This document shows, one piece after another, positions 3,001 through 6,000 of a DNA stretch of 64,000 bases (position 1 is the stretch's first letter; each line of letters opens with the position of its first letter). The DNA lies in NCBI RefSeq assembly GCF_056712565.1, contig NZ_CM160072.1; one strand, given 5' to 3'. Position numbers: made by a program.

Positions 3001-6000
3001 CAAGGCTGGGTTCTTCTGACGGGCGGCGGCACATGGATGTGCCTTTAAAATAATCATTGGCGATGTGATGTAGATTCGCGTAATATTACCTTACGGGTAA
3101 GAAAGCGTTTTTAATCTTCCCTTCAAAACGCGTCCTGTAGCCAAACATGGGAGGACGAAATGAAAACAAATACAACAAGAAAAGCGATGCCATACATTAT
3201 CCCAGAAGCAGATTTCGACAGAAAACTGAACATGTCTGAGAAGAACACTAGTCACACCGAAAGCTACTTAGCGAAAGGTGTGGTTGATTTCGTTCTTCCG
3301 GGATTCACAACACCTTATGGTTATCGCCTTGTAAAATCTTGTAATGGCGATCATTACAGAATGATTACTACCAGCGATACTCCAGAAACGGTGTATGCGG
3401 TTAAGTTAATCTTTCGGGAAGATATCGTCGAAGCTAAAAGAACATGTACGCAGATCATGGTATGGCGTACGCCTAATGTTATTCATGACCGTGCTGTTCA
3501 TGGTTTGCCTCAGATTTTTTTTCAGTTCTTCCTAGAGCAATATGCGATCGTTGTATCTGATGAGCAACAAACAATCGATGGGAGAAGATTCTGGGAAAGA
3601 ATGATTTCTTGGGCTATAAACACCCCGGGATATAATGTATACGTTTCAGATGGCTCTGAAGAAGATAGACCTCTTAGCTTCATGACATCATGGGATGATT
3701 TCTATAGCCAGTGGGCTGATTTCTGTTGGGGCAGTGATAAAGATGTGCATACCCACAGACTACTGGTTATAAGCAAAGATAAACTGCATTAATAGAAGCC
3801 CGCAGCGCGGGCTTTTTTGTGGACGAAACAAAAGTCAGTGCTACACTCATTGACGCCACATTGAGGTGGCTTATAGATGGAAATTTCACAATGAAAAAAA
3901 CATTTGCTGCACTGTTCGTTTTGTTGTCTCTGGTAGCTTCAACTCAGGCCTTTGCCGGTCGTTGTCAGCACGACAGCGATACTGCTGCTGACGGCTCCCG
4001 CTGCGGTGGGCGTTCTGCGGATTCCCGCCCGGGCGGCGGTGGCATTCGTTAAAAACAAGGCCGCGAAAGCGGCCTGTGACATGTCACGCTACATTGATAT
4101 ATGATTCATAAAGTAGCTTAAAGATTTACTTCCCAGAAAAGAAATTTCTTTTCCTGGATATGTCGCAATAATTGAGCATGACTTATCCCCGTTAGAGGTA
4201 ACAAATCCTGAATAACCTACTTGTTCTTTACCATTTTGTTGCTTGGCTAAAAAGTAGAGGTAGCTTATCTTTTTGCCCTCTGGGTAAAACTCTGCCAAAC
4301 CAGTATCGGTGATTGAATATTTTATTCTCCCGCCTTGAGTAACGTTTTCCATCTCAAGTTTAGCTATGTCTTTTCTGTTGTATTCAGCATTGATTTTCCT
4401 TTCGAAATCAATGTTGTTTTCAAATGAGTAGGAAGCAACAGTCTGAATAGATGGGAACACGTTTATCTGGATGCCCCCACAGTCGGCACAGGTATAAAGG
4501 TATGAATCAGATGGAATCCCCATAAAAGAAAACTGAGTTACCTTAAATTTATCGCTATCTCCAAAGTATTGAAGTTCGCATTTAACATTTTGCCCTGCAA
4601 AAGAAAATGCAGACATCAATATTGAAACAAAAAATATAATTGCCTTCATTATTATTTACCTAGCATGAACTGCGATGGTGGGATCAGAAAGTCGTTCCCC
4701 TGCTCACGCTCAACACGGCGCTGATAACGCTCAAGAGAGCCTGGGTCAAGGGCATCTTGTATCCGGTTCAATATTAAACCATTCATCGCCGTACGAAGCC
4801 AGAACACGTTGAGGAATGGCGTATTGTCAAGTGCCGTGCGATACCAGTCACCCAAATCTGCATCCCCTCTCGTGGTCTGCTGGAGCAGCGTGATAATGCT
4901 GTCAGCGTTCGATGCTGCTGGCCCCATTAGCGACGTAACCGGCCCGGCCCCCATGCGGTTGACCTCACCAAACATGAAGTCACCCAAGATGCCAAGACCG
5001 CCCCCCTGAGATGCGGCTGCGAGAAACGTCTTGGCATCTGCCGGGCGTGGTGTTTGCCCTTTCAGCATGAGTTTTGACTGCATGGAGATATAACCAAACA
5101 TAGTCGCCCAGACAAAGAGGTTTGCAGCACCAAGGAAAGCCCCCTTCCCGTTACGTAGCAGCGCATTCGTCAGCGATCCGGTTTTCGACTCACCAAGCCC
5201 AGCAGGAATATAACCACGCCCGAATACTTCGCGTCCTAGTACGTTCTGCATGAAGCTTGCAGTGAACGATTTGTACTGACCAGCGAATCGTATTGCTTCC
5301 CCAGCCACCGTTCCTGGCACCGTGCCCATCTTCATAAACGCCTGCGTGCGATCGCCAGGCTCTGACATGGCGATATTCAGACGGTCAAGGATGTAGCCGC
5401 GCAACTGCCCTTCCAATTGATCGCGTGCGTCAGCGATAGCGCGCTGCGTTGGTTTGATCCCCTTACTCTCTACATAACCGGCAATCACTTCGTCAGGCAC
5501 GCCGCGGATGCCGCTGGTCGTCATGAACTTACGACCTTCGCTATCGGCCATGTCCATGTTGCGAAAAATTTCCCACTCACGTTCGCCAATACCGTGCAGA
5601 TCCAGCACGCGTCGCAGGTCTTCCGGTAGCCGCGCATGAGACTGGTCAGCATTCTTTGCAAGCCAGTTGGTTATCATCATGGCGTTGCTGTTGCGACCGC
5701 TCTCGGTCCAGAAGTTCATGAGGTTGTACTTAAAGAAAAGCTGCTGCGCGCGACCAAGCTTTCCATTCAGCGTGTCATCACCAGATATGCGCCGGATGAT
5801 TTCCTGCGTCATGGAGTCGGAATAAACTCCGATAGAGGAAAGGATCTCTTTCTGCTCCGCGCTGTTGTAACGCGTGAAGCGGCCTCTCATAGCACCAAGC
5901 AACGCCTGCATAAAATTCTGCCCTTGGTAGCGCATCTCGGTAGCGGCGATAGGCACGTCGTTAAACGATGAGATTACCGCGCCACCAAGTTGGCTCATAC

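Follow-up and report, generated by a model that had tools for sequence, protein, structure and literature searches.

The gene and its transcription unit

The 64,000-nt stretch of DNA analyzed here (contig NZ_CM160072.1 of RefSeq assembly GCF_056712565.1; hereafter "the window") holds an ∼40-kb Escherichia coli prophage with epsilon15/phiV10 architecture, inserted between yfgI and guaA. Its subject gene is a 186-codon open reading frame (ORF) that directly follows the last gene of the ejection block and encodes a protein of 186 aa. The virion genes of the prophage are of the epsilon15 type (portal, protease, major capsid protein, Bbp16-type cement protein, and the gp10 "capsid staple"), and its ejection and core genes encode a T7-gp14-family core protein, an 898-aa SLT-domain protein, a 565-aa protein, and an 850-aa protein. 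A complete lysis cassette (two holins, a GH19 endolysin, and a DUF2514 protein) lies elsewhere in the prophage, and no O-acetyltransferase, Gtr, or polymerase-inhibitor gene appears in its annotation. Features and their coordinates are collected in Table 1.

The ORF runs on the minus strand from an ATG at 4649–4647 to a stop codon at 4089–4091. RefSeq places an ORF with identical coordinates in E. coli strain 4/0 as the hypothetical protein WP_000643933.1, and the 4/0 chromosome matches the gene's part of the window at 99.9%. An earlier sequence-only reading of this DNA had called the gene AT-rich, and the composition bears this out: GC content is 0.357 overall and 0.348 at third codon positions (GC3), versus 0.55–0.58 and ∼0.61 in the neighboring virion genes. 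The same difference recurs across six lineages, in which cassette GC is 0.31–0.43 versus 0.48–0.58 for flanking genes and lies 13–19 points under the adjoining ejection gene in every lineage. The ratio of nonsynonymous to synonymous divergence (dN/dS) is 0.07–0.17, with most comparisons saturated at synonymous sites, indicating purifying selection on a gene that changes fast but under constraint; positive selection was rejected on the same figures. Because it is conserved in at least eight genera and has this low dN/dS, the ORF is a genuine gene, beyond a chance reading frame.

The 850-aa product of the upstream gene falls in PHROG 684 ("virion structural protein") in a PHROG scan, and its tblastn matches include BcepC6B gp17, Vibrio VP5, and epsilon15 gp17, which Hardies et al. 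assigned to the T7 gp16/IVP-D family (PMC4819975, Table 2). On both grounds we take it to be the last internal virion (ejection) protein, in agreement with the sequence-only reading, and refer to it as IVP-D. Its stop codon (TAA, 4654–4652) is separated from the cassette ATG by 2 nt, so that the earlier figure of about 3 nt was essentially right. The ribosome-binding site of the 186-aa gene is embedded in the end of the IVP-D gene, an arrangement that, judging from its position, allows translational coupling; AGGT or AGGG occupies this position in the window and in four further loci (L012, L014, L019, and L022).

On the 3' side, a strong intrinsic terminator with a 7-pair stem, 6 pairs of which are G-C, begins 13 nt past the cassette stop codon. 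The homologous sequence of phiV10 carries a terminator annotation, and the terminator belongs to the conserved flank that is common to all cassette variants. No sigma-70-like promoter matching at least 9 of 12 consensus positions was found in the 300 nt upstream of the gene in the window, and none that was positionally conserved appeared across nine loci (300 nt each) in consensus scans, which a weak or non-canonical promoter could escape. The 2-nt gap, the embedded ribosome-binding site, the lack of a detected promoter, and the directly following terminator together point to co-transcription with the virion operon, and the simplest reading is that the 186-aa gene is the last cistron of the late virion transcript. 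The terminator and promoter scans thus place the gene inside the late transcription unit, and the late co-transcription proposed earlier stands as probable.

Of all sigma-70-like matches in the window's first 8 kb, the best (GTGACA, 18-nt spacer, TATGAT; 10/12) lies on the other strand, at 4076–4105 (+), and is directed antisense into the cassette gene at its 3' end. Its −35 element is in the conserved flank and its −10 element in the cassette, so the match is not common to other cassettes; it may be a chance occurrence in AT-rich DNA.

Table 1. Coordinates of the cassette, its signals, and related features (window positions, except for the occupants of other loci in the last row)
Feature	Position	Strand	Basis or remark
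Exported-protein coding sequence (exchangeable slot cassette)	4089..4649	-	186-codon ORF, RefSeq WP_000643933.1
Predicted Sec/signal peptidase I-type signal peptide, codons 1-18, MKAIIFFVSILMSAFSFA, predicted cleavage before G19	4596..4649	-	Rule-based check
Mature 168-aa domain, predicted Mog1/PsbP-like alpha-beta-alpha sandwich	4092..4595	-	C24, C54, C57, C158 (precursor numbering) invariant
850-aa last internal virion (ejection) protein, T7 gp16/IVP-D family	4652..7204	-	PHROG 684; tblastn; PMC4819975
Ribosome-binding site AGGT, 9 nt 5' of ATG, within the last codons (L-G-K) of the upstream gene	4658..4661	-	Sequence inspection
Intrinsic terminator	4048..4075	-	Stem-loop 4075-4058 (AGGCCGC-TTTC-GCGGCCT), then TGTTTTTAAC
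Internal virion protein with SLT (lytic transglycosylase) domain; candidate target	8900..11596	-	PF01464, E = 1.5e-17, residues 258-364; RefSeq annotation
Alternative slot occupants	L012 3628-3999; L013 3324-3620; L006 8636-9049	-; -; +	

An exchangeable slot and the family that fills it

Comparison with related genomes indicates that the 186-aa gene does not belong to the virion core but is an accessory cassette open to exchange. Of 5426 complete E. coli genomes, 62 have the IVP-D gene and 56 the 186-aa gene. The E. coli strains PF9285 and 18AR0366 carry an IVP-D gene 98% identical to that of the window, followed in the slot by a 123-aa signal-peptide protein and, in 18AR0366, additionally by a 98-aa protein with multiple membrane segments. 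When the window is aligned with prophages carrying alternative cassettes, DNA homology stops at 4633 and resumes at 4088–4091, which are the borders of the ORF.

More distant phages show the same position filled in other ways. The slot of phiV10 holds a 46-aa protein annotated with two transmembrane helices, followed by the same terminator; that of epsilon15 holds the 64-aa gp18, in which two hydrophobic stretches are visible by eye, again followed by a terminator. Stenotrophomonas phage BUCT708 and Pseudomonas phage Ab31 have the closest ejection proteins among cultured phages (45–49% identity): the former has a 95-aa protein in the slot, also with two hydrophobic stretches by eye, and in the latter the slot is empty and the ejection block runs directly into the tail-fibre gene. 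That every alternative occupant is an envelope protein suggests a slot-specific function.

Sequence divergence likewise argues for exchange. Between the window and a Salmonella prophage, synonymous divergence (dS) is 0.31 for the cassette and ∼2.0, a saturated value, for the adjoining IVP-D gene; the cassette has therefore been exchanged between diverged backbones. Over longer distances, the cassette diverges faster than its neighbors, with 45% identity where IVP-D retains 87%, and 38% where IVP-D retains 81%.

Two observations concern the alternative occupants themselves. The 123-aa protein is weakly similar to a 137-aa lipoprotein (25% identity over 88 aa, pairwise E = 4e-4, with shared cysteines), which lies 3' of a 191-aa homologue of the window protein in metagenomic phage contigs. 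The 98-aa protein has a sub-threshold match to a holin family.

The cassette family corresponds to PHROG 11983, whose function is unknown, and comprises 17–21 clusters at 90% identity and 8 at 50% identity among 1.84 billion protein representatives. It spans the genera mentioned above, and all members found are from Enterobacterales or Aeromonas, including clinical isolates of E. coli, Klebsiella, and Salmonella. The exact window protein occurs on at least 1000 contigs, and the gene in ∼1% of complete E. coli genomes. Neither a tblastn search of the 186-aa protein against 50,697 phage records nor one of the distant member P0024 against 72,556 plasmids returned a homologue; no cultured phage with proteomics was found to carry the gene, and literature searches on the RefSeq accession and on phage links of DcrB or PsbP found no study of the protein.

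Synteny is retained across much of this diversity. Closer Salmonella and Klebsiella members occupy the same slot after the IVP-D gene, and in Klebsiella michiganensis the cassette comes after the IVP-D gene and is directly followed by the tailspike gene, all on one strand. Members with 35–45% identity lie directly 3' of an IVP-D gene encoding ∼846–855 aa in Salmonella (L004/L005), Yersinia enterocolitica (L015), an Aeromonas-type contig (L017), and metagenomic phage contigs (L006–L008). In L017, the homologue is followed by Arc, Arc, and Ant genes and then by a GDSL-type tailspike. Judging from these gene orders, the family has a long-term association with the ejection module.

The Salmonella enterica loci L004/L005 are unusual in overall layout. 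Positions ∼1–15000 form an ∼15-kb island with an integrase, a repressor, AlpA, and a 915-aa P4-type primase, resembling a satellite, in which only three ejection-protein genes and a 185-aa homologue of the cassette protein stand beside the integrase; head, tail, and lysis genes are absent, and the SLT gene is split into parts of 554 and 295 aa. The island could have arisen by fusion of a prophage remnant with a P4-like element, or it could be a satellite that carries the ejection proteins of its helper.

Export, predicted fold, and possible function

The N-terminus of the 186-aa protein has the features of a cleavable signal peptide: MKAIIFFVSILMSAFSFA, followed by GQ, combines K2 in the n-region, a 12-residue hydrophobic core (mean Kyte-Doolittle value 2.67), and S-F-A at positions −3 to −1. 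The call was made by rules (n-, h-, and c-region features and the −3/−1 rule) rather than by a dedicated predictor. These export features are kept in all 15 homologues checked, even as the signal sequences themselves differ. Neither the window protein nor any of these homologues ends its signal peptide in a lipobox of the form [LVI][ASTVI][GAS]C. In the mature part, the Kyte-Doolittle mean over 19 residues peaks at 0.81, with nothing that resembles a membrane segment, and the homologues are alike in this. All family members keep four cysteines, which would be expected of a periplasmic protein with disulfide bonds. We conclude from these features that the product is exported and most likely a soluble periplasmic protein.

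The sequence-only reading had also proposed a signal peptide and a periplasmic or outer-membrane location. Export is upheld by the n-, h-, and c-region features and the four cysteines, found in every homologue; as to location, the periplasm is retained, as a soluble protein, and the outer membrane is not. An outer-membrane β-barrel or lipoprotein was rejected given the predicted alpha/beta sandwich, the missing lipobox, and a non-aromatic C-terminus. Two further candidates were set aside: a sequence match to T5 Llp in the PDB (8a60_B, E = 0.037), which covers only residues 1–41 and thus mostly the signal peptide, and an NlpE profile match that is far under its cut-off and was judged a signal-peptide artefact.

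AlphaFold modeled the mature protein with a mean predicted local distance difference test (pLDDT) of 89.2 and a predicted template-modeling score (pTM) of 0.86, from an alignment of 18 sequences with distant members included. The full-length protein with 14 close homologues had reached a pLDDT of only 44; the gain reflects removal of the signal peptide and addition of five distant members. Structural neighbors of the model, with the listed figure in brackets, were cyanobacterial PsbP (11.5, over 137 aligned residues), plant PsbP (9.8), SciW (9.7), Mog1 (9.6), PA0094 (9.5; an uncharacterised protein according to its PDB entry), LpqN (9.0), Tsi3 (7.8), TplEi (7.8), DcrB (7.6), and PA3488 (7.3). 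Foldseek returned the same set together with EagT6. The Eag chaperones count among the structural neighbors, and the best viral matches were two phage lipoproteins.

The model thus assigns the mature protein, with high confidence, a Mog1/PsbP-like fold, which is what came of the fold prediction that the sequence-only reading had named as a check. The relationship holds at the level of the predicted fold only, because sequence profiles miss it: apart from the NlpE match, no Pfam or NCBIfam family matches the 186-aa protein at E ≤ 0.1, and its identity to Mog1/PsbP-fold envelope proteins is 5–12%. Envelope proteins with this fold include DcrB, a DUF1795 lipoprotein (PMC7716261), and Tsi3, which in the periplasm neutralizes Tse3, a muramidase with an SLT-fold catalytic domain (PMC3792639). 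The model places the 186-aa protein beside immunity proteins of type VI secretion systems (T6SS), namely Tsi3, Tli4/TplEi, and PA3488, and beside DcrB. It differs from DcrB in not being lipid-anchored, from Tsi3/Tli4-type immunity proteins in lacking an adjoining effector gene (its neighbors in phage contexts are ejection genes on the 5' side and tailspike, Arc/Ant, BRO-N, and hypothetical genes on the 3' side), and from all of these envelope proteins in its four conserved cysteines, which are specific to the 186-aa family. That the product is an exported, non-virion accessory protein with a Mog1/PsbP-like fold is, taken as a whole, highly probable.

The closest parallel in genomic position is found in P22-like phages, in which the genes between the last ejection gene and the tailspike (gene 16 to gene 9) vary and include sieA and immI (PMC8022706). 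SieA blocks DNA injection, escape mutations map to ejection proteins, and sieA has its own promoter (PMC10461980). Like this region, the cassette directly succeeds the last ejection gene and precedes the tailspike gene, its surroundings are variable and also carry Ant/Arc/BRO-type genes, and the Aeromonas relative has Arc-Arc-Ant immediately after the cassette, as near immI. Unlike SieA, which is an integral inner-membrane protein, the 186-aa protein is predicted to be soluble and exported by a signal peptide, its gene has no detectable promoter, and its PHROG scan gives only phrog_11983.

A second set of parallels is offered by phage morons (lambda lom and bor, HK97-type) and by cor-type genes at the ends of late operons, which likewise are AT-rich relative to their flanks, vary in presence among homologous genomes, have junctions exactly at gene borders and a 3' terminator, and encode envelope-located products. 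The 186-aa gene may differ from morons in that consensus scans detected no promoter of its own, which would allow expression from the repressed prophage, and it translationally abuts the upstream virion gene; its product differs from the outer-membrane lipoproteins Cor and Llp in lacking a lipobox; and, unlike internal virion proteins, it is not conserved in all phages that share the virion module. As a kind, such an element is already known, namely an accessory envelope protein of moron-like composition encoded in the variable DNA behind the ejection genes; its family is uncharacterised.

Podoviruses deliver their DNA through a transient periplasmic conduit of ejected proteins. To our knowledge, few factors attack this step, namely P22 SieA, at the inner membrane, and, very recently, the HXS system. 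A further lead is T4 Sp (spackle), an envelope protein that guards against superinfection and lysis from without by neutralizing the cell-wall-degrading domain in the injection machinery of an incoming phage; the likeness lies in the proposed logic only. By analogy, the 186-aa protein would do the work of P22 SieA or T4 Sp from the same place in the genome.

We tentatively favor, as the best overall explanation and one that is possible rather than probable, a late-transcribed accessory cassette encoding a periplasmic binder that acts on incoming phages. The gene would be expressed by read-through transcription from the ejection-protein genes, ending at the terminator directly after the cassette, and translated from the ribosome-binding site embedded in the IVP-D gene end. 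The product would be exported by the Sec pathway, cleaved by signal peptidase I after A18, and stabilized by periplasmic disulfides among its four cysteines to give a soluble 168-aa protein. Its Mog1/PsbP-like domain would serve as a non-enzymatic binding scaffold, as in T6SS immunity proteins and in DcrB, a host factor for phage infection, making the mature protein a stoichiometric periplasmic binder of something that acts in or crosses the periplasm. The most plausible target would belong to incoming phages of its own lineage, either the conduit built of their ejection proteins or the SLT murein-hydrolase domain in it; DNA entry would be blocked, or the phage-producing cell protected against lysis from without.

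Interception of the ejection machinery of incoming related phages, the specific exclusion mechanism in this proposal, is itself doubtful. Superinfection exclusion had been suggested in the sequence-only reading too, and as a hypothesis it stays plausible, on circumstantial support. The mechanism is put forward because the position is equivalent to that of the P22-like exclusion genes, because SieA and Tsi3 provide precedents, because all slot occupants are envelope proteins, because the sequence evolves fast, and because the predicted fold is a recurrent periplasmic immunity scaffold. Our confidence in it is low because the fold is generic, the same IVP-D is found with unrelated cassettes, no promoter for expression in the lysogen is visible, and two relatives lie outside phages, and these and further points weigh against it. 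The pairing of a single IVP-D allele (98% identity) with unrelated cassettes argues against tight one-to-one co-adaptation with the ejection proteins. SieA, whose gene is served by a separate promoter, can protect a lysogen; the 186-aa gene could not do so if it were expressed late in the lytic cycle only. The two most distant members (28–29% identity) lie outside virion modules, one beside a SymE toxin gene and the other among TraI_2 and MPTase-PolyVal genes in a context resembling an integrative and conjugative element. The structure is a prediction from 18 sequences only, no PADLOC defense model matches the protein, and its exclusion function is inferred by analogy.

Other roles for an exported Mog1/PsbP-like protein were weighed against this proposal. 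Given the immunity proteins among its structural neighbors, the product might be an orphan immunity protein that neutralizes a cell-wall- or membrane-degrading effector of a T6SS or similar system in the periplasm, a benefit of lysogenic conversion unrelated to phages. We consider this improbable: no effector gene stands beside the cassette in any locus examined, no promoter for expression in the lysogen was detected, and a general anti-T6SS role would not explain why all phage-borne members examined are tied to the ejection block. The same missing promoter and the tight coupling to a late gene speak against a moron that serves host fitness or virulence (cf. lambda Bor and Lom), has no role for the phage, and merely sits where an operon end tolerates it. 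Such a moron would fit the AT-rich composition and the presence/absence polymorphism, both typical of morons, and the occurrence in clinical E. coli, Klebsiella, and Salmonella isolates; the linkage to IVP-D, conserved over deep divergence in four genera, and the confinement of the slot to envelope proteins, which suggests a slot-specific function, make it similarly hard to favor.

A modified form of the receptor masking named in the sequence-only reading would have the protein modulate the envelope, lipopolysaccharide, or receptor availability from the periplasm, by interfering either with O-antigen assembly or, as a DcrB-like mimic or competitor, with a host factor needed for infection, so that the cell could not be used by the tailspike-dependent phage or by other phages; DcrB shares its fold. 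Epsilon15 and phiV10 have serotype-conversion genes near their tailspike gene, and this prophage has no such gene by annotation, which would leave room for this role. Known seroconversion factors, however, are integral membrane enzymes or small hydrophobic peptides and not soluble periplasmic proteins; plugging of receptors in the manner of Llp or Cor is unlikely without a lipobox, since that type needs a lipoprotein, and the weak T5 Llp match falls mostly on the signal peptide. Overall, we regard envelope modulation as unlikely to be the function. Least likely is a role in the phage's own lytic cycle, whether in lysis timing (as antiholin or as endolysin or spanin partner) or as a virion or assembly component after all. 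The inferred co-transcription with late genes and the K. michiganensis arrangement would suit it, yet the gene is dispensable, being absent from Ab31, BUCT708, phiV10, and epsilon15; sister prophages with the same lysis and virion genes have a replacement in the slot; the lysis cassette elsewhere is complete; and a cleaved signal peptide, which directs the product out of the cytoplasm, is incompatible with packaging into cytoplasmically assembled heads. A virion component was accordingly rejected, and the earlier view that the protein is not one gains from its absence in Ab31, from the other exported protein found with a 98% identical IVP-D, and from the two members outside virion modules, which together make virion membership very unlikely.

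In its strongest form, the periplasmic-binder proposal would give short-tailed phages their first superinfection-exclusion (or anti-lysis-from-without) protein that is soluble and periplasmic: a PsbP-fold "immunity" protein that binds, in the periplasm, the SLT-bearing conduit of incoming relatives, is co-produced with the ejection proteins it recognises, and is swapped as one cassette among several alternative envelope exclusion modules of the slot. We think it rather unlikely that all of this holds. If a soluble periplasmic blocker were nevertheless confirmed, it would provide a simple single-gene handle on ejectosome assembly and would explain why small envelope proteins always occupy the slot after the last ejection gene in epsilon15-like phages; if the gene proved an ordinary moron of unknown benefit, the finding would be routine. 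The practical gain is more modest: the fold of an unannotated family is assigned with confidence, and its cassettes are mapped.

Other features of the prophage

The prophage is a mosaic. When window positions 1–12000 are compared with phage records, the virion and ejection genes have no close cultured relative (phiV10 reaches only ∼23% amino acid identity), whereas the terminator and the small accessory genes that lie from the ejection genes to the tailspike match TL-2011b-type coliphages at 97–98% DNA identity. With phiV10, identity is 96.7% over 61 nt around the terminator.

A convergent gene at 3891–4052 (+), with a longer ORF from 3819, ends at the cassette's terminator. It encodes a 53-aa protein (WP_000708858.1; PHROG 14503, "membrane associated protein") consisting of a signal peptide and a 30-residue Gly/Arg/Ser-rich peptide with two cysteines, and shares 97–98% DNA identity with TL-2011b. 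A 1.4-kb query that includes this gene had matches in ∼530 E. coli genomes, versus 56–62 for the other two genes in the query. Its very weak NCBIfam match to the His-Xaa-Ser repeat protein HxsA3 (E = 0.025; 14 bits versus a cut-off of 65) is probably due to chance.

At 3160–3792 (+), the window encodes a 210-aa protein of PHROG 1349 where sister prophages and TL-2011b have a YafO-family toxin gene, which is another swap in the same variable region. A tRNA-Arg is annotated in the prophage at L001 37336–37412, corresponding to approximately 21135–21211 (+) of the window, between the portal-side and terminase genes, where it adjoins a Gp49-family gene on the strand opposite to the virion genes.

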